A stretch of 64,000 nucleotides of DNA from Psammoneis japonica (taxonomy: Eukaryota): the NCBI GenBank assembly GCA_008632985.1, contig QPGO01000005.1, forward strand, positions 827,607 to 891,606, in the 5' to 3' direction. The notes beneath the pieces were generated by a model. The model had not been told where the DNA came from and searched no databases. It saw only the letters and a list, made by a program, of their open reading frames with translations. Made by a program: the position numbers and the translations under genes. Below, one piece after another: positions 2,047 through 47,303 of this stretch; within the stretch, counting starts at the first letter, position 1, and every line of letters begins with the position of its first letter.

Positions 2047-2115
2047 GTTCCAGCTCTGGGTGGGACCTTGCACCACTGAACTGTGACATCAACAGTTTTT
2101 TGGATCGCGTCGCAT

Positions 2116-2547: not shown

Positions 2548-2586
2548 CACTCCCCCATGATCAGGGCCGTCAAGTGACAGGATGTC

Positions 2587-6805: not shown

Positions 6806-6899
6806 GGTCGTTTTGAGATTTGTCGGTCCTGCCAACATTTCACAGTTTCATTTCTGTAGATTTCGTCACCTCGCACAACATGCGGGAGTGACATTGCTG

Positions 6900-8770: not shown

Positions 8771-8776
8771 CTTCAA

Positions 8777-9121
8777 GTTCCAGCCCCAGGTGGGACTTTT
8801 TGTGACATTTGCCCTGCAGAATTCCACATGAGAGCTCTGTGTTTCGTGCTCTGGTCAATGAACACATTCATCTCTCACACAAAAAAAGGCCAAAGTTTTG
8901 GACAGTGCACCTGCCCTGTGCCATTTTTAAGACACTCAAGAATGGTGCAGAAGAAAAAAAACATTGAAAGTTGTTGAATGGATCGCCTGACAATTGCACT
9001 ATAAAATGACACAAAATTTTGCCAAACTCACGTAGAAATGTACGTGCGCGACATGCGACGCAATTCAAAAAACTGTCGATGTCACAGTTCAGCAGTGCAA
9101 GGTCCCACCTGGACCTGGAAC
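8777..9121. mobile_element. MITE-like TIR element, second family member, inverted relative to the first
   Basis: TIRs GTTCCAGCCCCAGGTGGGAC and GTCCCACCTGGACCTGGAAC. Both ends match 2047-2115/7334-7360 and 7595-7657 in reverse complement, while the middle is divergent. Confidence 0.7.
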
Positions 9122-16659: not shown

Positions 16660-19600
16660 TGTCAAGCAGCCTTGTTTCCGTTTCCAACGCATGCATGTTG
16701 GGAGTGATCTGGGTCCATCGGCTTACCCAGCCATGCTGCTTCCAGCACATGCACCATCTGGCATGCAGTCCATTGACGATGAGGAGGAGGATGGGGAGGA
16801 CCCTGAGAAGATTGAAGATTGCTGATGAGTGCTTCTTCTTTTGGCCAAAGATTCTGCCACTGCCTCGGGTGGGCCACACTCCAATGTCCAATGGCGGGTC
16901 GCTGTTGTGCTGCTGCCTCTCAATGATGCACAGACAAAGTGCAAAAATGTTCAGTGTCTCAGCACAAGAGTCCCAGGTTGTGGTTGCCAAGACCCCCAGG
17001 GCTCACACACTTGGACCCCAACTTGCTGAAATTTGTGCATTTTGGGGGGGGCTGGAGCAAGTTTTCTTTTTTTTTCACTCTCATGTCCCAAGTTGCAAGC
17101 AACTGCACTTCCTCCAGCAACAACTGCAAGCCTGTTGTTGACCAGCACAGATGACCTCATCAAGGCTCTGTGTGGTTTTTTGTCAGGCACTCTGCCTCTG
17201 CCTGTGGCCGCCTGTGCACATTCTGGGAGTGTGGTCTGCTGCACCCTGTCACATCACCGCGTGCTTGCTTCAGCCCCAGCAGCCAGGGTGTGTTTCAGCC
17301 TGGGCATCTTGCCTGCTGACATGTCTGTGGATGACATGATGCTCCACAGCCCAAAAGAAGGTGTCGCCCATGGAAGCTTGGCTGCTGTTGTCAACAACAA
17401 CTGTCCCTTGCACCACACGTCACCATTGACTTTGCTGGTTGCTTTGCTGCTCTTGCTGACGGCGCTCTTTTCTCATGGCTCTGACTCAAAAATGCCAGCT
17501 CACACTAAGATGCATCTTTGAGAACCAAATGTGTGGCAATGACTTGCCCAGCGCGTGCTTCTGATTCTGGATTCTGTGTCCATGCACTGCGGTGCTTCAC
17601 ACTGCTGCAAGACAATGGCAGCAAAATTGGGGCTCTCTGCCTGTTTGCAACGATGTGAGCAGTGATCTTCTGCAACAAGTGTGTGTTTGTTGCAAGGAAG
17701 CTCAGAGGGTGATCCACACAAGAGAGGACTTTTGCTGCAATCTGATGTGCTCCCCAAGAGCAGCAAGCTCCTTTGTGTTAAAATGTTGCTGTGCCCTGGT
17801 GTGCAGGATTGACCAACAGCTGCCCTGAGCATCAAGAGCATCAAGGACTTTCTGTGGCTGCATGCATGTGTTGTGTGTCTTTGACATCAGCTCCTCTCTT
17901 GATGACCCCAGAGAAGCTGACCATTTTCATCAAGAATGCTGAGCCCCCCTCCCAACTTTTTCTCTCAATCAAGTTGGTTTGCTCTGCCAGCATGCTGATG
18001 CCCAGATTGTTGAGGTGTCATTCTCTGCTCTCTTTTGCCAGGCAGACAGCTTGCAATTCCAGGGGCAATCAACCACTTTGTTCTTTTGGCTCTTGCTTCC
18101 AAAATTGGGGCTGATGCAACACAACAATGCCGGGCATCTTTGAACCTTGCCCCCTTGAACAGCTCTCTCACCACCATCCTTTGAGCATCCACCTCCTTTT
18201 CTGGCAAGGTCTCTGTTGATTTTTGAGACAGCAATGGTGGGTGGTGCACTCCCAGCTGGATGCTGCTGGCACACCTCTCTGTCTTGTGCACCAGCAAACA
18301 TGATCTTCTTTGCCACAAGGAGGCCGGGAGCTCACAGAGCAAGCAAACAAGACAAAACTGGCTCTCAAAGCAGAAGCCAACATTGTCACATCTCATGCAC
18401 AACAGGGTCAATCAATGTGCATCCCTGCTGAAACTCTCATGATTGTGTGTTTCTGTTTGGACTTGCTGCCATCCTCTGTTCCAAGCTGCCCTGATTGGTG
18501 AATGAGCTCCACTCCACAGCAACAGTGTTTGGCCCAAGGATTGCTCTGTGCACTGCATGCTCAAGTTTTGCAAGCTTTTGGCATCTGCAAGTTTGCTGTG
18601 TGACATTGCCCATGTTGTCATCTCTGCTTGTCAGCCAAGCCAAGGCATGACTGTGCGAGGCATGCTGTTCAGTGGAAAGTCTGTTTGTCTTGGACCTGCC
18701 CTTGATGCCCCCACAGCCACATGCATCTCTTGACAATTTGACTGCATGTGTTGGAAACAGGGTGAGTGCCCCCCCCCCTGTGGAAGAACAGTTGCTTGAT
18801 GGCCAGAACCTTGATGCATGCCAGGCTCATCAGCCTTCTGGACAGCATCACATTGGAAAAAGTTGAGGATTTCCACACGCACTGCACACACTCAAATGTC
18901 ATGTTTGGGTGTGAGATTCTGGCTGTGCTGGCACCCAAGCCAATTTAAAATTTCCTGGGGCCTGGGTTCTGCTGCAACTGCTCTTTGAATGTGGCATCTG
19001 TTGCACACACCGTTGTGCACTCAAATGTGTCTCCTGCTGTGAGAGCTTTTGTGGATTTGATGCAGAGAGCAAAAAAGATCAGCTGCAGCATCAAGTTTGC
19101 TGGCCCAGTGTGAGGCCCCCAACCTGTGCAGTGACACAAGTGCAGCAGCAGCAGCAGCAGCAGCACAATTTGCAGAGCAGCTCATCATGCTTTTCTTGTG
19201 ACAAGTGCAGCACCCCAAAATTTGTCTGTTGGGGTGGTTCATGTCAAATGCAGGGGCACAACCTTTTTTCTAAAAAAGATGTCCCCCTTGTCCATTCAAG
19301 CAATTTGCTCACTTGCCCAAAGCACCCATGTGACAACACAGAGAAAAGATGTCACAGCCTGCCAGCACAAGAGCATGCAAGACAAAAAATGTGTCAAATG
19401 CAAATTCAATGAAAACAACAGATTTTCCATCATTGAAGCCAACACCACCAGCAATGCATTTGGCACAATCATGCTGCTCTGCTGCAGCACCCTCATCACA
19501 AGCTTTGGTTTTGTAAAAGTGGGCTGCTGGTGAACAAGTTGACAGCCAAGTTCATTGTGCAGAAGCACAAGATCTTTGAGATCTTTGGGAAGGTCAGGCT

Positions 19601-21230
19601 TCTCATGATGCAGTTGACTGCTGTCACCCAGATCTTGCATGCTGCTGTTGATGATGGCCTCTTGCGGATTTGGCGCTGGGCTTTGCACGGCAATGATGCC
19701 CCCTTTCATCACAAACATCTGCCAGGGCATTGTCGCTGTGCAGAGCTTGCCACATCAGTTGGACACCTGGTCAGATGACACCAGGAGTGCTGCAGTGCTC
19801 CTTGATGGGCTCCCAAAGCTTTTGAGCAAGAAGTTGTTCTCAGAACAAAGAACACTGCTGGCCAACCATTGTTTTTTGAGCCTTGCTCTAGGTTGATCTC
19901 AGGTGGCTTGCTGTCAGCCCACACCACCCAAAAGCTGCAACAACAACGACCCAAAACACATCTGAGCCAAAGCAGCAATGGCACCAAGGGCTGGCTTGCT
20001 GGGCATGTGCAAAGCCAGGGCCAGCCCCAGAAGATTTTGGCTTGGCTCTGGAAGCTTCAGCCATCAAATGGAGCTGCCAAAGCAAAGAGAGCAGGTTGCA
20101 CCAATCTGCAATCTTTTTGCTTTTTGTGCAATGTGCATGTTTGCACAGCCTTGTTTTTCATGCAGCACACTCTTTTTAGCCCCGGCATGTGCTTGAATTT
20201 TGATCTTGGACAAGAAAAGAAGTTTGGCATTGACATGGTCCTGTTGGAAGATTTTGGGGAACTCCTGTTTTTTTTTCTAAAGAAAAATGACTTGTCATGG
20301 CTGGGAACCCCCACAAAAGCACAAGTTGATGGTGTTTCTTGCACCAGAACTGCAACATCGTGATGATGACAACAACCCAGAATTTCAAAAAAGTTGCACA
20401 GTGGAGCATTTTTCTTGCAATGAGCACCCTTTCACAGATGCCAGGAGCTTCCTCCTTTGGCTGTTGCACCCCCAATGAGGCTGATTGGCAGCTTGGGTCA
20501 GCAAGAGTGCATTGTGCTCAGAAGCACAAGCAGGTCCATGTCACATGTGAAGGTGTCATGTGGCAAAAACAGTGGAGCATTTTTTTGCAATGGGCACCCT
20601 TGCATGGATGCCAGAGCCCTCCTCTTTTGGTTGTTTCATGCCCCCAATGAGGCCGATTGGCAGCTGGGGTCAGCAAGCACACACCATGCTCAGGAGCACA
20701 GGTGTGGGTTCATGTCGTTGCAATGGGCACCCTTGCGCAGATGCCGGAGCCCTCTTCCTTTTGCACTCGGTCATTGGAAATGCTTGAGAGGAGCCACAAT
20801 GCCAGCCCGGCACCATCATCTTGTGTCAGTGGAAGACTCCCTGCCGCCATGGGATTTTGAGTGGTCTGCAAGGTTTGTCCGAGTCTCTGCATGCATTTCT
20901 GACATGGTGCTTCATTGGTCAAGGGTTCCCATGAGTCATCAGAACGCTGTTGTGCATCATGCAATTGAGGCCACTGTGCAAAATTCTGTCACAAGAGGAA
21001 GAAACTGCACACCAGGGTTCTTAGCGTCATCAGCCAAAACATTGGTTGTTGTTGTCACGGACATGCCAGCACCTGTGATTGTCCATCTTTTTCCCTCCTG
21101 CTTTACGAGCCATCAAATCCGCCACGGTCGCGGTTTGGCATGGTGCGAGTTTTGTTGGCTGTGTCACGTGATTTCTTGCTTGCGAGCTTTTGGGCCCTGT
21201 CAATCGGCATGTCAGGTTCAACAGAAGATG
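16660..21230. other. TpA- and CpG-depleted degenerate repeat domain, family unidentified
   Basis: Very few TA or CG dinucleotides and TG/CA-rich; many Tyr-free spurious ORFs; internal imperfect repeats of 150-170 bp at 20395-20760. Confidence 0.7.
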
Positions 21231-23459: not shown

Positions 23460-24050
23460 CCGAACTTTGCTTAAGTGCCCATTTGGGCGACGATCACGCA
23501 CTTTTCACGATTAGAGCAACAGCCATCACACACCCGCTCTCAAAGGAAATCCAATCAGCATGGCTCAAAGTTGGTGCTGCACTCAGTGTGGACATTGCCA
23601 TCATTTGTAAAACATTTTTTGAAGAGAACATTGCCCTCTTGTTTAGAGCAAAACAACAACAACAACCGCGACCCTCTTGTTTGGAGCGCAAAACAACAAC
23701 GACCATGATGCAATCTCCAAAGTCAGAGCCCTGAGCGTCAAAAACAAAGCCAAAAAGCACTGTCATTTGCAATTCTCATGATGCCCACCCAAGAGTGAAA
23801 GCATTGGGGCAAAACATGCTGTTGCTCACAAATGGGGTCCACCCAAGCACAAAGCCAGCAGGCTGCTGCCTCTGTGAAGAAGCAAGATCATGCGGTGCTG
23901 GCCGGCACACTTTCCAGCTCTTTGAAGCCAATGGTGCCTCACTCTCACCACACCAACCACCACTGTGGTGTGATGTGCATCCACCCCAGGCAGGTGAAAA
24001 ACTTTTGAACAAATGACAAGGTTTTTTGTGCTTTTTTGCATGTCGTGTCA

Positions 24051-24325
24051 TGACAGAAAATGAAGGCAAATGGCAAGAATTCAAACAACAACTCCTTGCT
24101 GCTGTCTAAATGCAGATGAGTCTCCGCTCAGAGACTGTTGCAGGAGCCGAAAGACGTGCAAGTCGGTGTAATCGGGCTACTGTCATTGTTCTTGTGAGCC
24201 TTGTGGCTCGAAAGCAAACTACATCGTGCGTGAACGCGCGGAACCAAAGCACACAAAACTGTGCACGGCAAACTAAACAGCGCGCGATGCTTCGCGCGCA
24301 CCTAAATCCTGTTCAAATCCTGTCA
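24051..24325 (-). repeat. Copia 3' LTR
   Basis: Nine substitutions and one indel versus 30716-30991. Confidence 0.95.
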
Positions 24326-27300
24326 CTCCCCAGTTTGCTTGAGGAGCCACAGAAACAGATTCGACTTCGGATGGAATGAAGTTCCAGAACATGAGGGGGC
24401 GGAGAAGGTCCCAGATTTGGGAGCAACCCCAATGCTTGCTGAGAATGTCAGCAGGGTTGCGGGAGCCTTCGATGAAGTGGAACTCAAGGTAACCAGAGGC
24501 AATTGCCTCACGCACACGGTGGAACGACAGTGCGGTGTGTCGCTTGTGTAACTTGGAGTGCGGGATGGTGGCACTGTCTACAACCGACTTGTTGTCACCG
24601 AACATGTAACTAACGTTACAGATCGGGACGCCAAGGCAGCGCAGGGTGATGCGCAGGTCGACAATCTGCTCAACACAAGTCCTTGCGGCAACAAATTCAG
24701 ACCCGCAGGTCGCAGTCTCCACGGTGGCTTGTTTCTTAGAGAACCAATCAGCCGGGAATTTGTTGAGGAAGTGGAGCATTCCCATGACAGAGCGTCCGGT
24801 GAGCATGCAATGGTGCAAGTTTGCATCGACGTAGTGGGTGGCAGTGACGAACTTGCCAAGGGGCGGTGGAGCGTCCTTCGGGATCATCTCTTCTGCTTCA
24901 CCACACACGGAATGCATCCATTCACAGGCCGGAGCAGGGAGATCCGAACAGTCGGGCTCTTCCGTACGAACGCGGAGAGCACCGTGTCGCATCTTGGAGA
25001 GGTGCCCACAGACGCGTTTGGCACGATCCAAGTGGCCTTGACGGGGCGCAGCTCGGAAGCTAGAGAGTGACATGACAGCCGTGGCAATGTCAATTCGACC
25101 AAGGGACACTGCCCATTGGAGTGAACCAACAAGAGACTGGAACTTGTGAATGCCATCGGGTCCCAGCAGTTCGGAAGTGTCCAGTTCGGGGTGGTCACCC
25201 TTCTCTAGAGGTGACAGGGCGTTGGTGGCAGGTTTCTCCCCAAACAGTCGGGCATGGCTGTCGACCATGCGCTCGATGTACTTGCGCGGAGACAGGCACA
25301 AGGTTCCGTCGGGTTCCCGGGAAAAGTCGCAACCCAGATGGAACTCAATGGGTCCCGTGCCCTTGAGCTTGAACTTGTGCTTTTCCGTGAGAGTGTCGAC
25401 GAAAGATTGAGGGTCCTTCATGGCAATGGCGAGGTCATCCACATAAACGGCAATGTGTTCACAGTGGTCGCCGTTCCTGCGCATCCAAATGTCGGGTTCG
25501 GCGCGGCAGGGGAAGAAGCCTTCAGCTCGCAGGCAGTCGGCGAAGCGCTCGTGCCAGCGGAGACCGGAGCTGCGCAGTCCACACAGTGCCTTGTGGATGA
25601 CAAGGATGTGTCCTTCGAGTTTGCCGAACTCGGGTCCAGCTACAATGTAAAGCTTCTCCTTGGTGGTGGCTTCAAGGCAGGCATTGCCAATGTCGGTGGC
25701 CCATGTCTCCAACTCGTTGAGTTCGGCCAGGAAAATCATCAGCCGAAGGCCACGGAGGGAGACCACTCCGGAGCAGACACTGTCAACAGGTACGTCCGTG
25801 AGGTGCCCGTCGGCTACGAGTCGTGCCTTGTGGCGACCGTCGTGTTTCACATCGTACACCAGGTGCACTCGGATCTTCTTGTGTCCCGCAGGAGGAGTGG
25901 AAGACTTGAAGGGCCCGCAGTCATGGAAGACTTCACATTCGTCGAGTTGGTCCATCTCGAGATTGGTTGCGTCTCCCCACTTGCGGTTGCCGTTGCGTTC
26001 GTCCAGTGACATGGCGTGTTTGTAGTTCCGGGGAACTTCGCATCCATGCTTGTAGCAGGGTGCAGTGCGGAAGGAGCGAAGCTTGGCTTGGTTGGCCATG
26101 CGAAATAGCTTCTTTTGGCGCCTCGCGATGGTGCGGAACCGCTTCCAGCCATCCGTGTCGAGGAGTCCGTTCTCTCGTGCATGGATGGCACAGGTGACGG
26201 GGTCGTCCTTGGCGATGATGGCAAGAGGCTCGGACGTGATCTCCCCACTTTCCCATTCAAGCATGATGTTGTAGCTGGAGCCTTTCCAGGTTGGGTCGTG
26301 AGGCTTCAGAGGTCCTTCGTGTGACACGATGCGTCGAAATTTCCAAACAGTGGTGTCTTCGTCTTCTTGCTCAATGTGATTCATGATGTCATTGTGGGCA
26401 AGGACTTCCTCGTATTCGTCATTGTTGACAGAGCAGACGAACTCAGTGAGCTCGGGATTGCCGTTCACTTTCCATTCGTGGTCTTCGACGGCCTTGACGA
26501 TGCGAGCTCTGTGGCGTTGTCCGTCCTCTTGTGGCTGCATGAGGAAGGTGCGTCCAATGATGTCTTGCGGATCGAAAACTGGCATCTTGGGTGTCCTGAT
26601 CTCCCCATCAGGAGAGTCGACGGGGTTGTCGTCATGGCGAGATTTGATGATGGGTTCAGGTGGCTCCCCATCAGGAGGATCAAGACGCAGGTTTCGAACG
26701 GCAGGATCGGGGGTAGCGGAGCGGACGTTGGACCGGCAGAGGATCTTCTGAGTCTCGTCAGATAGAATCTTGAAGGTCATCTGGTGGCCGACGTGCTCAG
26801 CAATGCCAACGAAGCGTCCACGCAACTCACGGGATTCAGACGGCCAATCGGAGTCATCGAGGTGGAAGTACACGGGTTCCCACCAGTGAAAGCGAAGCAA
26901 TGGGCTGATGTCCGGGGTGGAGCCAGTGAGAGTCTCGAGGGGCGTGCGCCAGTGGAGACGTGGGGACGCTGCATGGTTGAGGATGAAGCACACGTGCATG
27001 AGCGCCAGCAGCCATGTGTGGGCGGGCGAACCAAAACGATCCATGACAGTGTTTGCCATGCGCTTCACGGTCTGGCATCGACGCTCGGCAAAGTTTTGGT
27101 GTTGCTGGTGAGGCTCACTTTGCCAGCTAGAGATGAAGAGGGCACGCAGGATCCCGAGCACTTTGTTGCTGATCTCAACTTGAGCACGGTCGCTAATGAG
27201 TTTGGATGGGGCACCACGTGCACGGATCTGATCCTCGAGTGTGTTGACAAACTCTTTGTCCGTCTTAGTGCCGCAGACGTCAGTGACGGCAGACTCGGTG

Positions 27301-29388
27301 CCAACAAACAGTTGGGCGCTGGTGCAACCAGAGTCGACGGCCGGGGTGTCGGCATAAACGGTGTCAGNNNNNNNNNNNNNNNNNNNNNNNNNNNNNNNNN
27401 NNNNNNNNNNNNNNNNNNNNNNNNNNNNNNNNNNNNNNNNNNNNNNNNNNNNNNNNNNNNNNNNNNNNNNNNNNNNNNNNNNNNNNNNNNNNNNNNNNNN
27501 NNNNNNNNNNNNNNNNNNNNNNNNNNNNNNNNNNNNNNNNNNNNNNNNNNNNNNNNNNNNNNNNNNNNNNNNNNNNNNNNNNNNNNNNNNNNNNNNNNNN
27601 NNNNNNNNNNNNNNNNNNNNNNNNNNNNNNNNNNNNNNNNNNNNNNNNNNNNNNNNNNNNNNNNNNNNNNNNNNNNNNNNNNNNNNNNNNNNNNNNNNNN
27701 NNNNNNNNNNNNNNNNNNNNNNNNNNNNNNNNNNTCGTCAAACAGGTTGGCAGTGGGATCGTCCTGCAGGTCAGAGATGCGTGCACCACTGGTCGTCGTC
27801 AGTGACAGAGTGATCGAGGACGGAAGGGTCCCATGTGTCATCACCGGTGAGGATGACATGGGGCAGGGTGTCCCATTCGGCGTCAGTGTAAGGTCGCATG
27901 GCAACATGAGGCAGGCCAGCCTTGATGTCAATGGGGATGACATAGCCATCAGGAGTGGCAATGCGTTGCAAGCCGTTGGGCACCTTGACAGAGCGATCGT
28001 TGACATCCTGTTTGCACCATTCGAGCTGGCCGCAGGAATGGATGGTCTTGCCCTTTCCCGTGTGTGCGCACTGATGGAGGATGGCGATGACGGGACCACG
28101 CTGGGTCTCAATGACGGCACCAGCGGTGACAATGGGGATGTCCACCAATTGATGATCGTCAATGCCCTGAACGTCGACTTGGCGAGAGGTGCGTGCAATG
28201 ACGCAAACGTCGTCGCCAGCAATGCCGCCGTTGGCCCCACGATCGACTAGAGCGCCAGTGCGTGTGGATCGATGAGCAGAGGCAGAGTGAATGACATTGT
28301 GGTTGTCAACGCGGCGGCAAGTGCGGCCGTTAAGTTCCATGTTATCTGCAGAAGCTGGCGGGGTAGAGGAAGCGGCGGATGGCCCCGGTCGACTGGCATT
28401 GGGGGCTTGGTTAGGAGACAACAGACGTTGCAGATCACCGGGTGGCAGTGGCTTGCGCTTGGTGAGGTGCGCCAGGATGGGATCATCCGAAGTGGCGTCC
28501 ACATGTGGGGCGGAGTCACCAGAGTCAGCAGGAGTCGTGTTGGACAAGTTGACATCACCGTCACTCCCAAGGCGTTGGTCGTGAAGGTTGGCCGTAACAG
28601 ACTCATGGCAGTTGCTGGCTCGCGGGTTGCGGGGAGGTGGACGAGAATGCTCAAGGATGATCGCCTTGGAGGAATCGGGCAACGAATCCCAGAGCCGTTG
28701 GTGGTCGGGAGGGAGACGTCTCCATTGGACACCGGTGAGGCTGGGACCGCGGGTGCAGGCAGCATTGGCTTGAAGGACGTCAACGTCGCTGTCAATGTCG
28801 TAGAACACATCGTCGGACGGTTCCTCGGAGCAGACGTCGTGTGCGCACATGGCGCGTCGGGGAGCTCGAGGTGTCGTCTTGGGTTGAAACGTGCTGTCGC
28901 ACTGAGCTGCCGCGGAGAGGAGCAAGCCACAGTGTTGATCGCATGTGAGGCTCTTGCCACTCTGCGTACGATGCTGATCAGCTTGGTTCTTGACAGCACG
29001 GAGTTCCTCGACAGGGTGCACGGCATTCTCGAGCATGACGCGCTTCTGTCCTTCAGAGAAGTGGTCACTGGCCGGGATGAGTGCCTCGCACTTGCGCAAC
29101 TGATCTTGCCAATGAAGGATGAACCCGTGGGTCGGACCTTTCCAAGTGCCATCACCAAGACGCGCGGTGGTGAGGTGCGTGAGCAGGGTGGAGGACTCGA
29201 CAGATGCGCGGGTGGAGGCAAGCGCGTGCTCAGACAAGGAGCGGCAGACGGTCTGTGCGTCAGAAGACTCCACATTTTCGCGAATGAGAGCCTTGCCCTT
29301 GTCGGTGAGAAGGATGCGTTCGAAGATGGCGAACATGTGCTTTTGCTGTTCAGCAAAGAGCAGTTTGTCTTCGGGGCTGGTCGGTTTG
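24273..29388 (-). pseudogene. Copia gag-pol, open where sequenced but heavily missense-mutated
   Basis: Protease LVDRGANGG; integrase QQHQNFAERR; RT HKARLVA, DIGNA, AVYVDD; RNase H VDAN, DNKSVV, NPADILSK. Gaps at 27368-27734 and 29389-30149. Confidence 0.9.
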
Positions 29389-30700
29389 NNNNNNNNNNNN
29401 NNNNNNNNNNNNNNNNNNNNNNNNNNNNNNNNNNNNNNNNNNNNNNNNNNNNNNNNNNNNNNNNNNNNNNNNNNNNNNNNNNNNNNNNNNNNNNNNNNNN
29501 NNNNNNNNNNNNNNNNNNNNNNNNNNNNNNNNNNNNNNNNNNNNNNNNNNNNNNNNNNNNNNNNNNNNNNNNNNNNNNNNNNNNNNNNNNNNNNNNNNNN
29601 NNNNNNNNNNNNNNNNNNNNNNNNNNNNNNNNNNNNNNNNNNNNNNNNNNNNNNNNNNNNNNNNNNNNNNNNNNNNNNNNNNNNNNNNNNNNNNNNNNNN
29701 NNNNNNNNNNNNNNNNNNNNNNNNNNNNNNNNNNNNNNNNNNNNNNNNNNNNNNNNNNNNNNNNNNNNNNNNNNNNNNNNNNNNNNNNNNNNNNNNNNNN
29801 NNNNNNNNNNNNNNNNNNNNNNNNNNNNNNNNNNNNNNNNNNNNNNNNNNNNNNNNNNNNNNNNNNNNNNNNNNNNNNNNNNNNNNNNNNNNNNNNNNNN
29901 NNNNNNNNNNNNNNNNNNNNNNNNNNNNNNNNNNNNNNNNNNNNNNNNNNNNNNNNNNNNNNNNNNNNNNNNNNNNNNNNNNNNNNNNNNNNNNNNNNNN
30001 NNNNNNNNNNNNNNNNNNNNNNNNNNNNNNNNNNNNNNNNNNNNNNNNNNNNNNNNNNNNNNNNNNNNNNNNNNNNNNNNNNNNNNNNNNNNNNNNNNNN
30101 NNNNNNNNNNNNNNNNNNNNNNNNNNNNNNNNNNNNNNNNNNNNNNNNNCTCACGAGCGGAGCAGCGGGTTGCAAACCCCTGCAGGTGAGCTGACTGGAG
30201 GTGGACAAGACCCCCGAACCGTTCTCATTTTATGTCGGTTGGATTTCCTGATCAGGCTGGCCAGTTGACGCAGGCGTTGGGCGCTGTGGACGAACGAACA
30301 AACGCGGGAAAGCACCCTCGCCCCAACGCAGGCTGCAACCACGGTCCTTGGCCGTGAAGATGTGTACACACGTGTGTCTTCAGCGACGAAGATCCTTGAA
30401 TGTGTGGGGTTCTTGACCGTCAACCGATGAACAGGCACATCAAGGGATGAGGATCAAGGATGGGCTTGGATATGACCGTTGAATGTATGTCTTCAGCGAT
30501 CAAAGGAGCACAATCAATCCAGATATCCAGCGGTAAGGAGACTTGACGGTGACGTTAACTTCCTGCCGATGCCCTGGCATTGAATGCGCGTAGACTTGCC
30601 GATGTATGTAGAATATACACGGAGGTCCACGTAGAATTAAAAATAGCGTCGTTGGTAAATCAACGACGACGATGGCGGTTGCTCAATGGGTTGACAATGA

Positions 30701-30715
30701 GCAAGACTGTTAATC
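30701..30715 (-). promoter_or_regulatory. Putative primer-binding site complementary to the tRNA-Asn anticodon arm
   Basis: GATTAACAGTC directly follows the 5' LTR on minus; the same sequence is at 32701 in the second element. Confidence 0.55.
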
Positions 30716-30991
30716 TGACAGAAAATGAAGGCAAATGGCAAGAATTCAAACAATAACTCCTTACTGCTGTCTAAATGGCAGATGAGTCTCCGCTCAGAGA
30801 CCGTTGCAGGAGCCGAAAGACGTGCAAGTCGGTATAATCGGGCTACTGTTATTATTCTTGTGAGCCTTGTGGCTCGAAAGCAAACTACATCGCGCGTGAA
30901 CGCGCGGAACTAAAGCACACAAAACTGTGCACGGTAAACTAAACAGCGCGCGATGCTTCGCGCGCACCTAAATCCTGTTCAAATCCTGTCA
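30716..30991 (-). repeat. Copia 5' LTR (least mutated copy)
   Basis: Keeps TA at sites where the other three copies have TG or CA. Confidence 0.95.
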
Positions 30992-33653
30992 TGTCAACTG
31001 CGCACACAAAGCCAAAGTCACAAGCTCTTTTGTTTCTGGACAAAGCACTCTGCGCAGCTGATGATGTCATGTCACACTCATCAGCTTGCCACCAGCTGTT
31101 GCTGTGATGTGTGCCCATCCCAGACAGGCAAGAAACTTTTCAACCAACAATCCAAAAAGCTTTTTTGTGAACTTCTGCACGTCATCATCGTGCGCATTTG
31201 GCACAAGGTCCATGTGAGGTGGTCAAGCTCTGAAACAAAGGCACTTTTTTATGTCTCACACCACAAATTGTGCACACCAAAAGCTGTGCCATGCCGCCAC
31301 CATGAGCTCTCTCACTCACAAACCAGTGAACACCTGAGCCAGGAGAAGGCAAGGGCACAGCAGCAATGGGCAAGCAAGCAAGACTGTGATTGATGCAACA
31401 GAGTTTGTGGCATGTTGATTTGTGCTGTTTGTGGGGCCTTGTGTCAAGCTGTTTGACTTGCAGCATTTGCTTTTTTTCTCTTCTTCTCAGATTTTGCAGC
31501 AGCATTTTTCACAACACTCACTGCTGCTGACTTGTTGCCAGTGCTGAAGTGATTTTCCAACAATGCAGCACTTTTGCTTGTGATGACTTTTCATGTTTGG
31601 TTGTGTGAGCACCAAAAGAGTGCCATTGCTCAGCTTTGAGGGTGTGTGCAATGCTCAGAATAAAACCAGTTGCCTGACAAAACATGGGACAATGACACAT
31701 TGGCAACATCTCAGGTTTGCAGCCACTTTGCTTCCTTGCAGGAGGGCAGGGGCAAGTTTCTCACTTGACAGCAGAAGTTTTGCCAACATTTTGTCGTGTC
31801 ATCTGTTTTTGCCTCCCCTGAAATCACTCGGATGCTCCACAGTTGTCAAACTTTGATGGCTCTGTCATTTCAAAGAGATGTGTTGCGCGCAACTTGCTTG
31901 AAACACCTCCTGTGTTTGTCAAGATGAACTCACCAATCTTTGAGGCAACTGACAACATGTGCAAAGCACAAGTGTGAAGTCAGCCCCCTCAATTTTTCTC
32001 ACACACAAGAAATGAACCAGAGCAGCAGCACCGCTCTCTTTTTGGAACAAGCTCTTTGTGCACAATGAAGAGTGCAATGAAAGAAACAGCAAAACAGCCT
32101 TCACAAATGCACCCAAAAAAACAACATGCACTGCAACATTGTTTTCTTGCCAAAAATTGCCTTCTGAAGATCTTCCTTTTGTTGCTTGCACTTTCCAGGC
32201 AATGAGCAGAATGAGGGCTGGCATTAAAAAAAAATGGATCTGAGGAAACAAGCAAAGAAAGATTGAGGAAAGTTTGTCTGATTTGCTCAAACAAAATGCA
32301 CTGTGATGGAAGAAGGATGGCACAAGAGTGCCTGACTTTGGCACATGTGTTTCTCACCTGGAGTGAAAACACACCCCACAAGAGGAGGGCAACATGAGAT
32401 TTGCCGGTGCCCCCCCATGCTCTCTGACAGGATTTGAACAGGATTCAGGTGCGCGCGAAATGTCGCGCGCTGTTTAGTTTGCCGCGCACAGTTTTGTGTG
32501 CCTTGGTTCCGTGCGTTCGTGCGCGATGCAGTTTGCTTTCGAGCCACAAGGCTCACAAGAACAACAACAGCAGCCCGATTGTGCCGACTCACACGTCTTT
32601 CGGCTCCTGCAACGGTCTCTGAGCGGAGACTCATCTGCCATTTAGACAGCAGTGAGGAGTCATTGTTTGAATTCTTGCCATTTGCCTTCAATTTCTGTCA
32701 GATTAACAGTCTTGCTCATTGTCAACCCATTGAGCAACCGCCATCATCGTCGTTGATTTGCCGACGACGCCACCTCAATTCTGCGTGGACCTCCGTGTGT
32801 GTTCTACATGCATCGGCAAGTCTGCGCGCATTCAATGCCAGGCATCGGCAGGAATTTAACGTCACCGTCAAGTTTCCTTGCCGCTGGACATCTGGATTGA
32901 TTGTGCTGCCTTGGATCACTGAAGACATGCACTCAACGGTCACATCCAAGTCTGTCCTTGATCCTCATCCCTTGACACACCCATTCAACGGTTAACGGTC
33001 AAGAACCCCACACATTCAAGGATCTCCGTCGCTGAAGACACACGTGTGTGCACATCTTCACGGCCAAGGACTTGAACCCACCCTTTGGACTGCGGCTTTG
33101 CTGCCACTCTACAAGCACGCCGAGTCTGTTGCACCTGATCTGCCCCGGACTGCTGGTGCTCCACAGTTCTGCCAGGTCCACGAGGACAACTGTGAGAGCA
33201 AGCAGCCGTGATTGCAGCCTGCGTTGGGGCGAGGGTGTTTTCCCGCGTTTGTTCGTTCGTCCACAGCGCCTGACGCCTGCGTCAACTGGCCAGCCTGATC
33301 GGGAAATCCAACCGACACAAAATGAGAACGGTTTGGGGGTCTTGCCCACCTCCAGTCAGCTTGCCTGCAGGGGTTTGCAACCCGCTGCTCCGCTCGTAAG
33401 CAACCCAAAGCGCCGCTGGCTGCGGGTTCGGATGTGCCGGCACAACTCTACGGACCGGATGGGAAGTTTAGCACTTGACAATGAATGGGGTGGCACAGCC
33501 CGGCGACTTCTGATTTTAAGACAGTCCAAGATTTCAAGTCAAGTCTAGCTCAAGTCAAGTCTTTTTCAAGCCAAGTTCCAAGTCAAAACTCCGAGTCAAG
33601 ATCGTGCTCTAGATTGGTTCCTGTCTTTTGTTTCTGCTGCACCGTCCTCCGTC

Positions 33654-35444
33654 ATGGTTCTCACGCAACAGCAACAAACCGAAAGCTTCAAATGCATTCT
33701 AGGCACTGTGCTCAATCAAGACGATGACAGCCCTCTTCGTTCTGCCCTGTCCATCAACGGGATTGAATCGTGCGAGGAATTGTTCACGTTCTTACCCACC
33801 CAAATTGATGCCCTCACTCACAGAGACGGCGCCAATGCAGTGCCTTTGCCACGGACCCACAGAAACCTCCTAGCAGCTTTGATCAGCTTCTACTTTGTCA
33901 AAGTTTGCAACGGTGATGATGTGACCAATGAACCCCAGTTGCTCACACCCGAGGAATTTCGCAACTGCCGCCTTGGTCCGGACTGCTTGACCTCTCTAGC
34001 CACTGGCACAGCACCCTCTGCACCTGTGCCCAGTCCCTTGCCATCCAAACCAGATGAACCCAGTGCCATTTTGACACCAGCCTTGCACTGTGCCACCACT
34101 CAGGTGTCCCCCAGAAGTGGTGTCAGTCGTGCCCCGCATGTCTTGACCAACCCGCCTGCAAGCAACCTCGGCCCAGTGCAGGATTGCAGCCCTTGCACAG
34201 GCCTGCACTTCAAGACCAGTTGGGACACTCCACCCATGGCTTCCAAAGCTGCAGTCTTTGCACCCCGCAAACCACGTGCTGCCAACCTCCACGTGTCGAC
34301 TTCTGTCGCTGTCACCCTTCACAGTCTTCGTTTGGGAAGTGATGGAGGTGACAACTTGCTTCTCGCATCTCCTGATGGGGAGCCTCCTTTTCCCGTCATT
34401 GAATCTGTTCACAACAGTTCAACTGGTTCATCAGATGGGGAGTTCAGGACATCCAAGCAGCTTCATTGTCTTCGGATCCTCCAAGCATTGCACCATGAGA
34501 CTGGGCCTCCTGATTGGATGCCCCAAGTCTCGCACCTCGAGACCAGGCCTCCTGATTGGATGCCTCAAGTCTCGCACCTCGAGACTGGGCCTCCTGATTG
34601 GATGCCCCAAGTCTCGTGCCTCGAGACCAGGTCTCCTGATTGGATGTCCCAAGTCTCGCACCTCGAGACCAGGCCTCCTGATTGGATGCCTCAAGTCTCG
34701 TGCCTCGAGACTGGGCCTCCTGATTGGATGCCCCAAGTCTCGTGCCTTGAGACCAGGCCTCCCAACTGGACTCTCCACGTCTCGTGCCTCAAGACCGGGC
34801 CTCCCAATTGGATCCTCCACGTCTCACACCTCAAGACTCGGCCTCCGGATTGGATCCCTCAAGTCTTGTGCCACGAGACTCGGCCTCCTGATTGGATCCC
34901 CCAAGTCTCGCACCTCAAGACTTGGCCTCCTGATTGGATCCCCGAAGACTCGTGTCACAACACTGGCAAGTCCTTTTGGATCCCAGAAGTCTTGCAGCAC
35001 GGGACTGGTTGCCCCAATCAGACATCTGCAGCCTTGCACCACAAGATGTCTTGCTCCAATCCGATCCCCGAAGGCTTGCACCTTGAGACTCTTTTCTCCA
35101 ATTGGATCAGTCTCTCAGGAGATGCAGTCGGATTGGTGGAACACAAGACCACCGCTTGTGCCTTTGAACTGATGCTTGCTCTGTTCCCCGAGTCGTGCAA
35201 ACGCCATGCCACCTGCAATGTTGCCCCACCGTTCAACATTGTCAACCAGACCAAGCTTTGCTCCTTCCATTGCAAGCGCGGATGTGGAATCCCACAAGAT
35301 CCCAAGTGTGCCTTGAGCTTTGAAAAGCACAACGGCATCTGCAATTGGGGAGACGCAGCTCATCTCAAGATGACCCACTTGGAGAATGCAACGTTGCTCT
35401 CGGATCTTGATCCTTTCTTGTCTCCTCATGTTTTGGTGCTTTGA
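33654..35444 (+). CDS. Gag-like mosaic protein with 14-aa tandem repeats (element-encoded, possibly non-functional)
   Basis: 596-aa ORF with short blocks homologous to the neighbouring gag-pol (RLGSDG, PDGEPP..I.S.H, KL.SF...NG...WGDA). Confidence 0.6.
   Translation: MVLTQQQQTESFKCILGTVLNQDDDSPLRSALSINGIESCEELFTFLPTQIDALTHRDGANAVPLPRTHRNLLAALISFYFVKVCNGDDVTNEPQLLTPEEFRNCRLGPDCLTSLATGTAPSAPVPSPLPSKPDEPSAILTPALHCATTQVSPRSGVSRAPHVLTNPPASNLGPVQDCSPCTGLHFKTSWDTPPMASKAAVFAPRKPRAANLHVSTSVAVTLHSLRLGSDGGDNLLLASPDGEPPFPVIESVHNSSTGSSDGEFRTSKQLHCLRILQALHHETGPPDWMPQVSHLETRPPDWMPQVSHLETGPPDWMPQVSCLETRSPDWMSQVSHLETRPPDWMPQVSCLETGPPDWMPQVSCLETRPPNWTLHVSCLKTGPPNWILHVSHLKTRPPDWIPQVLCHETRPPDWIPQVSHLKTWPPDWIPEDSCHNTGKSFWIPEVLQHGTGCPNQTSAALHHKMSCSNPIPEGLHLETLFSNWISLSGDAVGLVEHKTTACAFELMLALFPESCKRHATCNVAPPFNIVNQTKLCSFHCKRGCGIPQDPKCALSFEKHNGICNWGDAAHLKMTHLENATLLSDLDPFLSPHVLVL
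34497..34958 (+). repeat. 42-bp tandem repeat, about 11 units plus a degenerate tail to ~35110
   Basis: Unit GAGAC(TG/CA)GGCCTCCTGATTGGATGCCCCAAGTCTCG(CA/TG)CCTC, encoding ET(G/R)PPDWMPQVS(H/C)L. Confidence 0.95.
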
Positions 35445-37554
35445 CTCCAAAGTTCTTCAGTCAATCCAAAGTCGAATCTGTTTCTGTGGCTCCTCAAGCA
35501 AACTGGGGAGTGACAGGATTTGAACAGGATTTGGGTGCGCGCAAAACATCGCACGCTGTTTAGTTCACCGCGCACAGTTTTGTGTGCCTTAGTTCCGCGC
35601 GTTCGCGCGCGATGCAGTTTGCTTTCGAGCCACAAGGCTCACAAGAACAACAACAGCAGCCCAATTGTGCCGACTCACACGTCTTTCGGCTCCTGCAATG
35701 GTCTCTGAGCGGAGACTCATCTGCCATTTAGACAGCAGCAAGGAGTTGTTGTTTGAATTCTTGCCATTTGCCTTCAATTTCTGTCACTCTCCTTGTGGCT
35801 GAGATGGCTGTGTCATCTTTTGATCCAGAAGCAAAGCAGGCTAAATGACATGAGTCAAACCTCCAGGAGTGGAGAGAAAAAAGTCTTAAAAAGAGAGTTG
35901 CCCCCCCCCCCCCCCTTCAAAGCTGGCTCTGAAAAACAAGGAGGAGAGAGTGAGCTGTGAGAAGAGCTGCACCCGCTTGAGACATGCTCCACTCCACAGA
36001 AGGAATTTTTGAGACAAAGTGCCATGGAAGTCTGTGCATGAGCTTCTTTTGTGGGACAGTCTGCAACAACAGACACCAAATTGCAGTCACAACATGCACA
36101 AGAAGCAAAACAAGGAAAAAATGTCTTCTTTGTGTGCACGTGTGGTTTCTTGATGACACACGCACATCAACAACAAGCAAGGCTCACACCTGCTTGCAAG
36201 ATGTGTGAAATTTGGATTTTCTGGATGGCTTCTAGTCCCTTTTGACCATGCAAATCAGACAAATCAATGATGCGGAGCAGACACAGTGGCAGAGGGCAGA
36301 AAGACACACACAAAAGGCGGGGCAATTTCCGTGGTGATTGCTCTGCTGTGTTGTGTCAATGAGAAAATGAGCAACAATGTGCCTGAAACAATTCTGTGCT
36401 GCACAGTGCTGGCACATTTTGCAGATTGACACAAGTGTGGTTGATCTGCCTTCATTTGAACACATCTCACTCTGGCATGTTGAGGTCCCCGCCCAGAGCT
36501 GGAGCCCATTGTGAGAGCAAGAAATGACCAAGACAAATGAGGACAATGAGCAGGAGCTTTGTGCACAAAGCAACAAATGATGTTTGCTGTCTGCTGCAGC
36601 AGAAAACAAATGCTTTGCAGCACAGTGCAGATCAGCACCGAAAAAAGAACCCAGATGCTGGTGCAAATGCCTTGTGCACAATCTGGTGACAACAGCTCAT
36701 TGGTGTTGCACACACTGCAATTGAGCGACACAGATTCAAGCAAAAATGACAAGCAGCATGCAGAGCCATGTTGCAGTTGGCAAGCACACAACAGCCAGGC
36801 AACCCAAGCCAGGTGCAGAAGGTCCTGTGTTAGCTGGATTGGGGGTTTGTAGATCCCCCCTTTGATGACCCCTTGAAAACACAGAGCATGTCACAAGAGC
36901 AAGCAGCCTGGGTGTGCAGCTCTTGGAGGCTGCATCTCTTGCTCTCTCTCACACCACCACTAGACAACTCATCCACAGCATGAAAATTGCTTGTTTCTGC
37001 TGCTTTTGACCCAACAATGACACCAAGTCTCAGCCTTGCAACAACAAATTTTGTGCTGCTCTTCTCTCAAACATCAAAACATTGCTCAACACAACACTCT
37101 GAAAAATCTTTTGAGAGCAACAAATGGGCAACAAGAGAAAGAGAAATGATTTGCAGTGTGGTGCCACTGACAATAGAAGAGAATGACAAAAGAAAAATTT
37201 TTATGTTGTGGAAAATGTTGCCTGGGGTGATGTGTCATTTCGCTGCGCTACACACTGATGCACTCGTGAGATGAACCAAATCTTGGGTGCAGCAATTGAC
37301 GCAAGAAAGGAACGGATCGCACTGTAACTCATGTTACTGCAGTGATATTTGCCAATAATGTAGCGGTAAGTTTGCTTGCCAAAGTGGTTAAGACTAATCT
37401 TAAAATACACCAAAATTGTTATGTGGGTTCAGTAAAAGTGGCCGAGACACATGCGTCATGCTGTGGATTCGGTGGAATAAACAGGAACTTGCTTGGATTA
37501 TTCTGCTTCGACACCGTCAGCATCCTGACTCTGTGGCAGCTGGCTCGAACGCTT

Positions 37555-43400: not shown

Positions 43401-43616
43401 TCGTGCTTCTTACGGATGGTTCCTCGCGCTCCTCTCGACTGCATCTCTCGCGCCAGAGTAGTTCTATATATCCTACATGTTAGTGCCTTTGAAAAGTTAA
43501 TTCTATCTCAGATAGACTAGTGTGGTACTTACTCTAGCAAAGAGAAGCGAGAGGAGAAGATAGATGTGCAAAGTACAAGAAGCTTGGTAGAATGTTGGAG
43601 AGCTAACTGCTTCGAT

Positions 43617-45930: not shown

Positions 45931-46212
45931 GGTTGATTTATATTGCTGTTTGTTGTGTGTGAAGAGGTATCGCGGTGTTGTCGTGCATCGTGCACAAAAA
46001 ATGAATGAGTGGATTTCCAAGTTGAAGTCTGTTCGTCAACTCCCATTTCATTCCCGCGTGAATGAACCATGAACCCCGCGCTTGCGCCGCAACCTCCCCA
46101 ACCAACCACGCCGCCAGCCAGCCATGATGACGGTTTTTGGCAGCACACCGCCTGTGCCAGCAACTACTAGTATGTGTCTGTCTCGAAACGATAAGCGGAG
46201 GATCCGAAAAAA

Positions 46213-47235: not shown

Positions 47236-47303
47236 TGGAACCATTGCAGTTACATAACATTGAGGGTAGACAGAGCTATTAACCATTCTTTACTTCTTTC
47301 CTT

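Follow-up and report, generated by a model that had tools for sequence, protein, structure and literature searches.

How do two LTRs of one retrotransposon come to differ almost only at TA dinucleotides? The question is raised by a Ty1/copia insertion, here called element A, in a stretch of 64,000 nucleotides (the window, analysed here as a whole) from the genome of the diatom Psammoneis japonica. An earlier note on this DNA had read the difference as TA loss that took place after integration and on both strands. All of the reading below is drawn from this single window of 64 kb and from a few elements.

Element A and its two LTRs

24051..30991, minus strand: element A, Ty1/copia LTR retrotransposon (6941 bp, of which 1128 are N; LTR pair, RVT_2, TSD)
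24051..24325, minus strand: 3' LTR of A, the sister that mutated (6 TA remain; the two CG>TG changes and the indel are here too)
30716..30991, minus strand: 5' LTR of A, the sister that was spared (13 TA; its bin, 30501-31000, is TA-normal with rho TA 0.77)
24046..24050: TSD TGTCA of A, left copy
30992..30996: TSD TGTCA of A, right copy
24276..27365, minus strand: reading frame of A, integrase-RT-RNaseH (open, 1030 aa, hypermutated)
27368..27734: assembly gap (N) within A
29389..30149: assembly gap (N) within A

Element A is a Ty1/copia retrotransposon by its RVT_2-type RT, its 5-bp TSD and its LTR ends of the TG...CA type (TGACAG...CTGTCA). RVT_2 is found at residues 491-703 of the 1030-aa frame (Pfam, E 1.4e-26), which has 743 Copia-type homologues with PF07727. 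Pfam detected no integrase domain in the mutated frame; the position of the RT points to an integrase upstream of it.

The sister LTRs (275 and 276 bp) were aligned with MAFFT (24040-24335 against 30705-31001) and their differences classed by script. There are nine substitutions and one one-base indel: four TA|CA, three TA|TG and two CG|TG, with no other type. The earlier note had listed the same seven TA sites, two CG sites and one indel by eye, as well as the TSD TGTCA on both sides, and both stand. The TA or CG state is always in 30716-30991, and the CA/TG state always in 24051-24325. The 13 TA dinucleotides of the LTR cover 26 of its 275 positions, and the probability that at least seven of nine substitutions fall there is 2.0e-6. 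Within the pair, 7 of 26 TA copies and 2 of 40 CG copies have been lost, and none of the other 418 positions has changed. The 7:0 count follows from where the two LTRs lie: the 3' LTR is inside a mutated tract that runs from 24051 to about 30500, and the 5' LTR inside about 490 bp that were spared. The pair is a snapshot of this TA loss.

Two further insertions

32425..35786, plus strand: element B, non-autonomous relative of A (LTRs 32425-32700 and 35511-35786; TSD CTCTC at 32420-32424 and 35787-35791)
2117..7333, minus strand: element G, Ty3/gypsy-type (LTRs approximately 2117-2547 and 6901-7333)
4680..6000: spared tract inside G (rho TA 0.7-1.1)

The interior of B lacks pol and contains a tandem-repeat ORF. 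Its LTR pair has five CA|TG doubles, one TA|TG, six CG-type differences and no others, and that of G has 14 CA|TG doubles, five TA singles, seven CG-type differences, four others and one indel. Both pairs show the same decay as A, nearer saturation, with CA standing opposite TG at 5 and 14 sites. The 5' LTR of A keeps TA at four of the five doubles of B, and at the 30 TA sites of A in 30150-30991, B has CA at 14, TG at 10 and TA at 5. The LTRs of B also polarise the CG>TG changes and the indel of the 3' LTR of A. When every CA|TG double is counted as two TA hits, the three pairs together hold 51 events at TA, 15 at CG and 4 substitutions of other kinds, meaning that 51 of 55 polarised non-CpG events are TA>CA or TA>TG; A/T>G/C changes outside TpA number 0 in pairs A and B. 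In G, the integrase ORF (2587-3993) contains 1 Tyr in 469 aa, and ORF 4610-6838 has 13 Tyr, all but one of them within 4739-5938.

Repeats and genes along the window

1..2116: saturated domain; its ORF 1026-1958 is a weak remnant of a reverse transcriptase (RVT_1, E 5.7e-6, short of the Pfam cut-off)
7334..11000: saturated domain flanking G, from the dinucleotide map
17001..21000: saturated domain (8 TA and 32 CG in 4 kb; CA+TG rho 1.7-2.0)
30997..32419: old saturated DNA between A and B, target of both insertions (rho TA 0.03-0.06, CG 0.16-0.39)
39001..43000: saturated domain (5 TA and 32 CG in 4 kb)
43001..63500: gene-dense unaffected domain (rho TA 0.3-1.2, CG about 1)

In bins of 500 bp the window is bimodal in TA, with sharp edges; for example, there are 0 TA across 16724-17300. 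The depleted bins are 1-4500, 6001-11000, 17001-21000, 23501-30500, 31001-37000 and 39001-43000, and the genes are normal. In repeat DNA, TA o/e falls to 0-0.1 and afterwards CG to about 0.1 (0.04-0.3 in old domains), against about 0.6 for TA and about 1 for CG in adjacent genes. Element A itself has TA at 0.14-0.33 while CG is about 0.9; its part adjoining the second N gap (30150-30500) is TA-poor, with 4 TA. The domain 17001-21000 is complex sequence, not microsatellite, and its ORFs gave no Pfam hit. Genes in 43001-63500 are Kri1, a methyltransferase, UFD1, PPR, a GDSL lipase and a mitochondrial carrier. Within the window, clusters in which TpA is scarce and CpA+TpG abundant are confined to repeat DNA and genes are spared. 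Hypermutation comes in sharp-edged tracts and leaves the genes beside them alone, and its end state is repeat DNA that is nearly TA-free, later CG-free, and built of CA/TG steps.

Direction and timing of the change

That TA is lost and not gained, as first proposed from the LTRs, is borne out by codons and by a tree. Codon polarity was judged on columns of the A frame that are conserved in 40 homologues. At 31 conserved Tyr columns, A has Cys (TGY) at 11 and His (CAY) at 8, that is, 19 replaced, while Tyr is found in A at 0 of 32 conserved His/Cys columns (19 against 0 reverse, Fisher p 2e-8); the Tyr content of the frame is 1.3%, against a homologue median of 3.96%. On the tree of four LTRs, with 13 variable TA/CA/TG sites, loss of TA/CG takes 27 steps and gain by C>T takes 33, and the gain model also requires 8 ancestral CG that are preserved in none of the four. 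Formally, C>T/G>A would describe each of the nine substitutions in the A pair, with the TA-rich 5' LTR as the mutated one and CA/TG as ancestral, and a DNMT4/RID-like family is present in many diatoms (PMC9998398). Such RIP-like deamination of C (CpA>TpA) is nevertheless scarcely credible in view of the codons and the tree; TA is also fewer in the older pairs (A 13/6, B 2/3, G 3/4), and repeat domains are TA-free, not TA-rich. Fungal RIP in the strict sense, with C>T at CpA and a TpA excess in repeats, was discarded on the same absence of TA from repeats and on the opposite polarity. The GC content of A is 56%, compared with 45-51% in most relatives. No sense codon can become a stop codon through TA loss, and therefore dead elements retain long open frames.

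Both strands are hit, as the earlier note had claimed: the LTRs of A have four TA>CA and three TA>TG, the Tyr codons eight His and eleven Cys, and B has 14 CA and 10 TG. From the presence of both products it had argued against RNA editing or RT error, and the argument holds. Under the established scheme of LTR replication, one RNA template each supplies the U3 and the U5 of both LTRs, and a change made before integration should not make sisters differ. ADAR-like A-to-I editing of the element RNA, or RT errors, copied into DNA, would gain some appeal from metazoan ADARs, which favour a U ahead of the A that they edit and have repeat-derived dsRNA as a target (summarised by Mettrop et al., bioRxiv 10.64898/2026.01.13.699255). 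RNA editing, however, predicts TA>TG on the coding strand alone, and the opposite strand carries 8 of the 19 Tyr changes and 4 of the 7 in the LTR; repeat DNA that does not resemble retroelements is TA-free as well. In Bigelowiella natans, according to the same preprint, the mutations arise in resident chromosomal DNA. A pre-integration origin is accordingly highly improbable, and for the differences between sister LTRs it is contradicted outright; APOBEC/ADAR-type editing, which is single-stranded and leaves LTRs identical, was rejected given that sisters differ and both strands are hit. The placing of the process after integration, at the level of DNA, is upheld by the sister LTRs of three independent insertions, which all differ in this way, by the non-coding repeats without possible annotation that are affected too, and by the chromosomal origin of the B. 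natans signature. Chromosomal LTR retrotransposons and older repeats of the window have been hypermutated after integration from TA to TG or CA, far faster than by CpG decay or any other substitution.

Sequence context and loss of CpG

In depleted domains R-T-A-Y is almost extinct, with a TA share of 0.011-0.057 of that in normal domains, and Y-T-A-R is the best survivor (0.24-0.35); the mixed contexts shift, in four of four cases, to the product of the strand with a pyrimidine after A. This composition suggests a T-A-Y preference, to which polarised events merely lean (5 of 7 in the LTR; Fisher p 0.18 for Tyr codons). Strand-coordinated runs were looked for and not found (7 runs against 10.3 expected, z -1.6, and 13 against 12.7), which leaves a processive single-strand mechanism unsupported.

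The 15 CG-type events of the three LTR pairs are transitions, CG>TG/CA. Together with a CG o/e of about 0.1 in the oldest domains they would fit ordinary 5mC deamination, here about one fifth of events and several-fold slower per site than TA loss. In Phaeodactylum, CpG methylation of transposable elements is carried out by DNMT5a (PMC9998398).

Other copies and environmental relatives

Logan contigs (from one study, probably the source data) match the flank/LTR junctions of A at 23000-24077 and 30967-32452 with 0 differences. They leave the interior and the N gaps unbridged, being pieces of 100-700 bp inside A, and join unique flank to just 25-27 bp of each LTR. Summed contig depth, which is a depth figure and not a copy number, is 7.7e3-1.2e5 in bins inside A and 61-79 in the flanks. 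Of 209 differences in Logan contigs, the 40 with the best support come to 32 events: 8 CA|TG doubles, 16 CG-type, 3 other, and 5 in which the window has TA and other copies of the A family CA/TG.

Among metagenomic Copia loci, 48 of 51 have rho TA of at least 0.52, compared with 0.21 for the pol of A. These 48 environmental loci lack the signature, and TA loss is therefore not general to diatoms. It is seen in other loci, with 13 of 17 conserved Tyr changed to Cys/His in L035 and 16 of 19 in L031; in four control loci the count is 0-1 of 26-31, and in the control pairs L001 and L012, 2 of 24 differences are of TA type.

Assembly, modified bases and selection

With two N gaps and a highly repeated family, parts of A could stem from other copies. 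The 'spared' tracts (30500-30991 and 4680-6000) could likewise be products of assembly or gene conversion, because copies that differ in their mutations, when merged base by base into one consensus, would give TA. The 7:0 contrast of the A pair would then be such an effect: the LTRs would not be true sisters, and the 842 bp from the second N gap to the right flank would come from another, less mutated copy or from a collapsed consensus, while TA loss in the family would still be real. The very high copy number, the contigs broken inside A and the comparable 'spared' block within G speak for this, but the TSD is identical on both sides, pairs B and G give the same spectrum without any N, and the TA-rich part adjoins unique flank and the TA-poor part the gap, the opposite of a collapse far from the anchor. 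On balance this is rather unlikely.

A somewhat better chance, though still a small one, belongs to a route to the same outcome that involves no adenine deaminase, in which TpA carries a modified base that pairs or is repaired wrongly, or repair or polymerase is biased in a chromatin-specific way. Candidate bases are thymine modified as in hydroxymethyl-uracil or base J, and N6-methyladenine. Hydroxymethyl-uracil of dinoflagellates is enriched at TpA; we know of no TpA-type base mark in diatoms. Of the pyrimidine-purine steps, TA and CG are the two that are palindromic, and the erasure of both in the same domains recalls a symmetric mark that can be maintained. Base excision of a modified thymine, however, should add transversions and indels, which are almost absent (0 in pairs A and B), and the losses of TA and CG are uncoupled in time, as the values within A show. 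Untargeted erosion is very unlikely. Under it a genome-wide TpA bias would wear down neutral DNA and selection would keep TA in genes, and genic bins too have a rho TA of just about 0.6. Yet spacers in the gene-dense half are at or above expected TA (the TA-rich intergenic spacer 55001-55500 is untouched, with 46 TA and rho 1.17; 58001-58500 has rho 0.89), the edges between TA-free and normal DNA are abrupt, and there are spared tracts inside dead elements.

Proposed process

Repeats in this diatom lose TA by targeted hypermutation after integration, and the reading as a whole, with the agent proposed here, is probable. 5'-TA-3' becomes TG by A>G, and CA by A>G on the opposite strand; this would be the process that acts in the mutation-accumulation lines of B. 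natans. An adenine deaminase is the likeliest agent, and would be a DNA deaminase of TadA/ADAT type converting A to inosine, read as G. Such an enzyme would prefer T-A-Y and might be brought, in defence of the genome, to chromatin that is silenced, repeated or foreign, with 5mC deamination presumably stripping CpG from the same domains more slowly.

Comparison with known systems

The process is not new to science: in a preprint of 2026, Mettrop et al. (bioRxiv 10.64898/2026.01.13.699255) report that NCLDV and virophage DNA integrated in the chlorarachniophyte B. natans undergoes TpA>TpG/CpA hypermutation. In two viral regions of mutation-accumulation lines, 230 of 231 mutations were A>G/T>C, all at TpA and on both strands; they arose de novo in resident chromosomal DNA, episodically, at about 1000 times the background rate. 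The authors put forward an ADAT2-like or TadA-like deaminase as a hypothesis, and RT and DDE domains were enriched among TpA-poor CDS. The signature in P. japonica matches this one: near-exclusive A>G/T>C, confined to TpA, on both strands, regional, and leaving TpA-poor clusters rich in CpA+TpG. The host, however, is a diatom and thereby a stramenopile, where the chlorarachniophyte is a rhizarian; the DNA hit here consists of LTR retrotransposons and anonymous repeats, and polarity comes from sister LTRs and conserved codons instead of mutation-accumulation lines. Depletion here reaches saturation (0-2 TA per 500 bp), compared with rho 0.45 in the NCLDV region of B. natans. CpG is co-depleted in the oldest domains and an extended T-A-Y preference is suggested; the available preprint text does not contain 'CpG', 'LTR', 'diatom', 'retrotransposon', 'trinucleotide' or 'context'. 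A literature search found no report of TpA hypermutation in diatoms or LTR elements.

RIP of ascomycete fungi is also a post-integration process at the level of DNA, transition-only and dinucleotide-specific, which degrades repeats, leaves genes and reshapes base composition by domain. It changes C>T at CpA, makes TpA and stop codons and lowers GC, whereas here TpA is destroyed, GC goes up and frames stay open. APOBEC3 on LTR retroelements and ADAR on repeat RNA in animals are likewise context-specific, deaminase-type defences against retroelements, but APOBEC works before integration, on C in the minus-strand cDNA, and leaves G>A on one strand, the substrate of ADAR is RNA, and neither gives both-strand differences between sister LTRs or mutates resident DNA. 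If the process is indeed that of B. natans, the same unusual mutation process would be common to distantly related algae, directed at viruses in one and at transposons and repeats in the diatom.

Sister LTRs of three elements

The two LTRs of element A, a Ty1/copia retrotransposon on the reverse strand (24051-30991), align over 275/276 bp with nine substitutions and one 1-bp indel. The earlier note had read these differences as seven TA losses (TA to CA or TG), two CG>TG changes, one indel and nothing else, and this is exactly what alignment and scripted classes return: four TA/CA, three TA/TG and two CG/TG, with no other class. Every TA or CG state is found in the 5' LTR (30716-30991) and every CA or TG state in the 3' LTR (24051-24325), which also carries both CG>TG changes and the indel when polarised by element B, a non-autonomous relative. 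Changes affect 7/26 TA copies, 2/40 CG copies and 0/418 other positions. Since the 13 TA dinucleotides make up 26/275 positions, the probability of at least seven of nine substitutions falling on TA is 2.0e-6. The target site duplication (TSD) proposed for A likewise matches on both sides.

Features of element A
24046-24050 and 30992-30996: TSD TGTCA (5 bp)
24276-27365, reverse strand: pol open frame of 1030 aa, with a Copia-type reverse transcriptase (PF07727 RVT_2, E 1.4e-26)
27368-27734 and 29389-30149: N gaps

The pol frame has 743 homologues with a best identity of 68%; the best named one among those listed is from Nitzschia inconspicua (56%). Two in-frame stops at 27738-27773, right beside the first N gap, part it from the gag-protease frame (27774-30224), and they may represent poor sequence at a contig end. 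Short stretches on either side of the element (23960-24020 and 31090-31150) are alike, so the target of A was apparently an older repeat array that was TA-free by then. The observed/expected ratio (rho) in A is 0.14-0.33 for TA and about 0.9 for CG; with most TA gone while CG is nearly intact, TA loss is the faster process. The mutated tract runs from 24051 to about 30500, and the last ~490 bp, including the 5' LTR, have normal TA (26 TA in 30501-31000), so that all seven TA losses fall in the 3' LTR.

A self-BLAST of the window gave two LTR pairs beyond that of A.

Further elements
32425-35786, forward strand: element B, with TSD CTCTC, and LTRs and 5' leader in common with A
~2117-7333, reverse strand: element G, Gypsy-type, with integrase, protease and RVT_1 matches; a TSD was looked for at its ends and none was made out

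In B, the sister LTRs differ by five doubles (CA in one LTR, TG in the other), one TA/TG and six CG-type changes, with no other differences. The LTRs of G differ by 14 doubles, five TA singles, seven CG-type changes, two other transitions, two transversions and one indel. As sister LTRs start out identical, a double means that one dinucleotide was hit twice, and because the 5' LTR of A has TA at 4/5 of the doubles in B, these are independent TA>CA and TA>TG events. When each double is counted as two TA hits, the three pairs together hold 51 TA events, 15 CG events and four other substitutions. The proposal that A lost TA after integration and on both strands is therefore supported, with B and G giving the same spectrum.

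The interior of B is unrelated to that of A and contains tandem repeats. It has an open frame at 33654-35444 (forward strand, 596 aa, no Pfam matches), in which roughly 84-bp tandem units at ~34460-34990 (self-BLAST offsets 84, 168 and 252) encode a repeated peptide with many P, D and W residues. This frame (TA o/e ~0.1) may be open only through the removal of stop codons by TA loss. In G, which is hypermutated elsewhere, a block of ~1.3 kb (~4680-6000) has normal TA (rho 0.7-1.1) and normal tyrosine content. Of the 13 Tyr in the gag-pol frame, 12 lie in this block, and the integrase frame has one Tyr in 469 aa. Escape from mutation, gene conversion or a mosaic assembly could each have produced the block. 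Spared stretches occur in A as well as in G, so patchiness comes either with the process itself or with gene conversion or assembly.

Assembly of element A

Parts of A may have been mis-joined, as its interior is gapped and the family has a very high copy number; a consensus called base by base from copies with different mutations would itself read TA. The TSD nevertheless matches on both sides, the TA-rich part is the part anchored to unique flank, and the spectrum is unchanged in the N-free pairs B and G. Logan contigs of one study, which contains 0.76 of the sampled words, have 0 differences from the window over the unique flanks and the outermost 25-27 bp of each LTR of A, and bridge neither the element nor its gaps; they are probably the source data, hence no independent confirmation. 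Inside A there are thousands of short Logan contigs (12491), with 54 A>G, 44 T>C, 46 C>T and 41 G>A differences and 15 for all transversions. The best-supported 40 of 209 difference rows amount to 32 events: eight CA/TG doubles, five sites with TA in the window and CA or TG elsewhere, 16 CG-type, two other transitions and one transversion.

Direction, strand and sequence context

The same LTR differences could in principle reflect a gain of TA from CA or TG, as in fungal RIP (C>T at CpA). This RIP-like reading is ruled out by three lines of evidence, all of which uphold the direction claimed earlier. In a comparison of A with 40 homologues (626 conserved columns, 554 of them in agreement), the 31 conserved Tyr columns contain Tyr 9 times, Cys (TGY) 11 times, His (CAY) 8 times, Phe twice and Trp once. 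Thus 19/31 have become Cys or His, and the reverse change to Tyr occurs 0 times in 32 columns (24 conserved His and 8 conserved Cys; Fisher p = 2.3e-8 for the asymmetry). On the tree ((A3',A5'),(B5',B3')), irreversible TA/CG loss explains the 13 variable TA/CA/TG sites in 27 steps and C>T gain in 33, and the gain model requires eight ancestral CpG with 0 surviving. Finally, the more diverged pairs hold fewer TA (13 and 6 in A, 2 and 3 in B, 3 and 4 in G, where 28 and 31 CG are left).

Both products, TA>CA and TA>TG, do occur, as had been claimed, and in about equal numbers: 4 CA versus 3 TG in the LTRs of A, 11 Cys versus 8 His at the conserved Tyr columns, and 10 TG versus 14 CA in B at sites where A keeps TA. 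Strand-coordinated tracts are not supported, with 7 runs versus 10.3 expected in the pol frame of A (z -1.6) and 13 versus 12.7 in B.

The share of TA among TA, CA and TG in depleted relative to normal domains is 0.011-0.057 for R-T-A-Y and 0.24-0.35 for Y-T-A-R, and in 4/4 mixed contexts the product shifts to the strand whose A precedes a pyrimidine. This lean fits 5/7 events in the LTRs of A. Tyr codons after a pyrimidine have become Cys 8 times and His 3 times, with 9 retained; after a purine the numbers are 3, 5 and 4 (Fisher p 0.18). Together, these sequence patterns are suggestive of a T-A-Y preference. TadA/ADAT enzymes act naturally on the anticodon loop at U33-A34 (UAC in bacterial tRNA-Arg); such a preference would therefore suit an enzyme of this kind.

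Depleted and spared domains

Over the whole window the o/e values are 0.38 for TA, 1.37 for CA, 1.40 for TG and 0.72 for CG, an average that masks two states.

Domains and genes
1-4500, 6001-11000, 17001-21000, 23501-30500, 31001-37000, 39001-43000 and 63501-end: repeat domains, mostly 0-10 TA per 500 bp
11001-17000, 21001-23500, 37001-39000 and 43001-63500: gene domains, TA ~0.35-1.2 (a range that includes TA-rich intergenic spacers), CG ~1
15078-16373, reverse strand: HSF-type transcription factor gene, a TA-normal island amid TA-free repeat domains
37786-38652, reverse strand: rhodopsin-family 7TM receptor gene, a second such island
48467-49705: UFD1, a host gene

The oldest repeat domains have CG o/e of 0.04-0.3 and CA+TG of ~1.8-2.0, and consist of complex sequence with no microsatellite. 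Domain edges are sharp (16724-17300 is without any TA), and with the HSF-type and 7TM genes TA-normal between TA-free domains, the process is tightly confined. Runs of G (up to ~17) are found at 41321-41337 and 40925-40933, within a TA/CG-free domain. The best homologue of UFD1 is 73% identical, and the named ones are from diatoms only (Attheya 68% and Cyclotella cryptica 57%, for example), which places the host among the diatoms, with no close sequenced relative in the collection searched. Five ORFs of the window had no exact-sequence match in the protein collection. A megablast of the LTR had no match either, but covered phage records only and is uninformative.

As TAA and TAG need TA, and TGA arises solely from TAA, a TA>CA or TA>TG change never turns a sense codon into a stop, so long ORFs persist or newly arise in every frame of hypermutated DNA. 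The pol frame of A is open despite the loss of 19 conserved Tyr. Some 16 kb of TA-free DNA (1-2116, 7334-11000, 17001-21000 and 39001-43000) has 40 ORFs that run for at least 120 aa without a stop, in many cases with overlaps on both strands; among 17 long ORFs of TA-free domains, Pfam gave a single sub-threshold RVT_1 match (ORF 1026-1958). DNA of this kind would mislead gene predictors. GC content rises with TA loss and is 56% in A versus 45-51% in most relatives.

Copies in other sequences

Related Copia polyproteins were found at 51 metagenomic loci, with rho TA of at least 0.52 in 48 of them. The other three are low (L035 0.13, L031 0.27, L014 0.31), with CG at 0.74-0.80. Conserved Tyr is now Cys or His at 13/17 positions in L035 and 16/19 in L031, compared with 0-1 of 26-31 in four control loci; L014 is frame-shifted and stands outside this count. 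With this signature in L035 and L031 and normal TA in 48/51 loci, the process is found beyond this assembly, though not in diatom Copia elements generally. Of 120 homologous proteins (median Tyr content 4.06%), the sole low one is P0077 (1.73%, on a 46.8-kb contig), which may be another copy with the low-Tyr signature. In the control repeat pairs L001 and L012, 2/24 differences are TA-type. These controls are thin: 16 loci reach at least 5.5 kb, eight have a terminal repeat, and six of these were set aside as they are 100% identical over 103-127 bp and look like assembly overlaps.

Implications and comparison with known systems

The whole finding is based on one window and three elements. One reading, which we put forward tentatively and hold to be somewhat less probable than its negation, is an 'inverse RIP' in diatoms, at least in this lineage and the hosts of L035 and L031: a chromatin- or small-RNA-guided T-A-Y DNA adenine deaminase that inactivates transposons through erasure of TpA on both strands, held in common with chlorarachniophytes and hence possibly ancestral to the SAR supergroup. 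Tyrosines and TATA-like signals would be silently abolished with the frames kept open. If so, many of the transposon ORFs that pass as 'intact' in algal genomes would be dead, and a natural deaminase competent on double-stranded DNA is still to be discovered; the T-A-Y context would be a mechanistic handle for the enzyme search, and a natural DNA adenine deaminase is of interest for base-editing research. Simple diagnostics are CA opposite TG in sister LTRs, conserved Tyr replaced by Cys or His, and a bimodal TA o/e. In such genomes, dating by LTR divergence and calls of 'intact ORFs' are unreliable, because TA sites saturate fast and TA loss yields no stops.

A full-text literature search did not find TpA hypermutation in diatoms or LTR elements. 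The available text of a Phaeodactylum mutation-accumulation study gives a GC>AT bias and 0 occurrences of 'TpA'. CpG methylation of diatom transposons is documented in PMC9998398, and would account for the slower CG loss.

The closest known case is that of the chlorarachniophyte Bigelowiella natans, as described in a preprint (10.64898/2026.01.13.699255). In its mutation-accumulation lines, two integrated viral regions account for 231/302 nuclear mutations, and 230 of these 231 are A>G/T>C, all at TpA. The rate is ~6e-7, with the mutations present in some lines only; 124 clusters poor in TpA and rich in CpA+TpG show an enrichment of RT and DDE domains, and an ADAT2-like deaminase is proposed as the agent. 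Each feature of that signature testable in this window is found here. The preprint text available is without diatoms, LTRs, retrotransposons or CpG, whereas the window has a diatom host, LTR elements and CG loss. It is also without extended context (its supplementary mutation tables may hold such data), for which a T-A-Y lean is seen here. If confirmed genome-wide, TpA hypermutation reaches beyond one chlorarachniophyte's viral inserts to diatoms, one of the dominant groups of phytoplankton, and to ordinary retrotransposons, which would point to a genome defence, widespread among eukaryotes, via A-to-G rather than C-to-T mutation. The process in this window is best filed with the TpA-targeted A:T>G:C hypermutation of B. 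natans, relative to which the diatom host, the LTR-retrotransposon targets and the saturating depletion are new.
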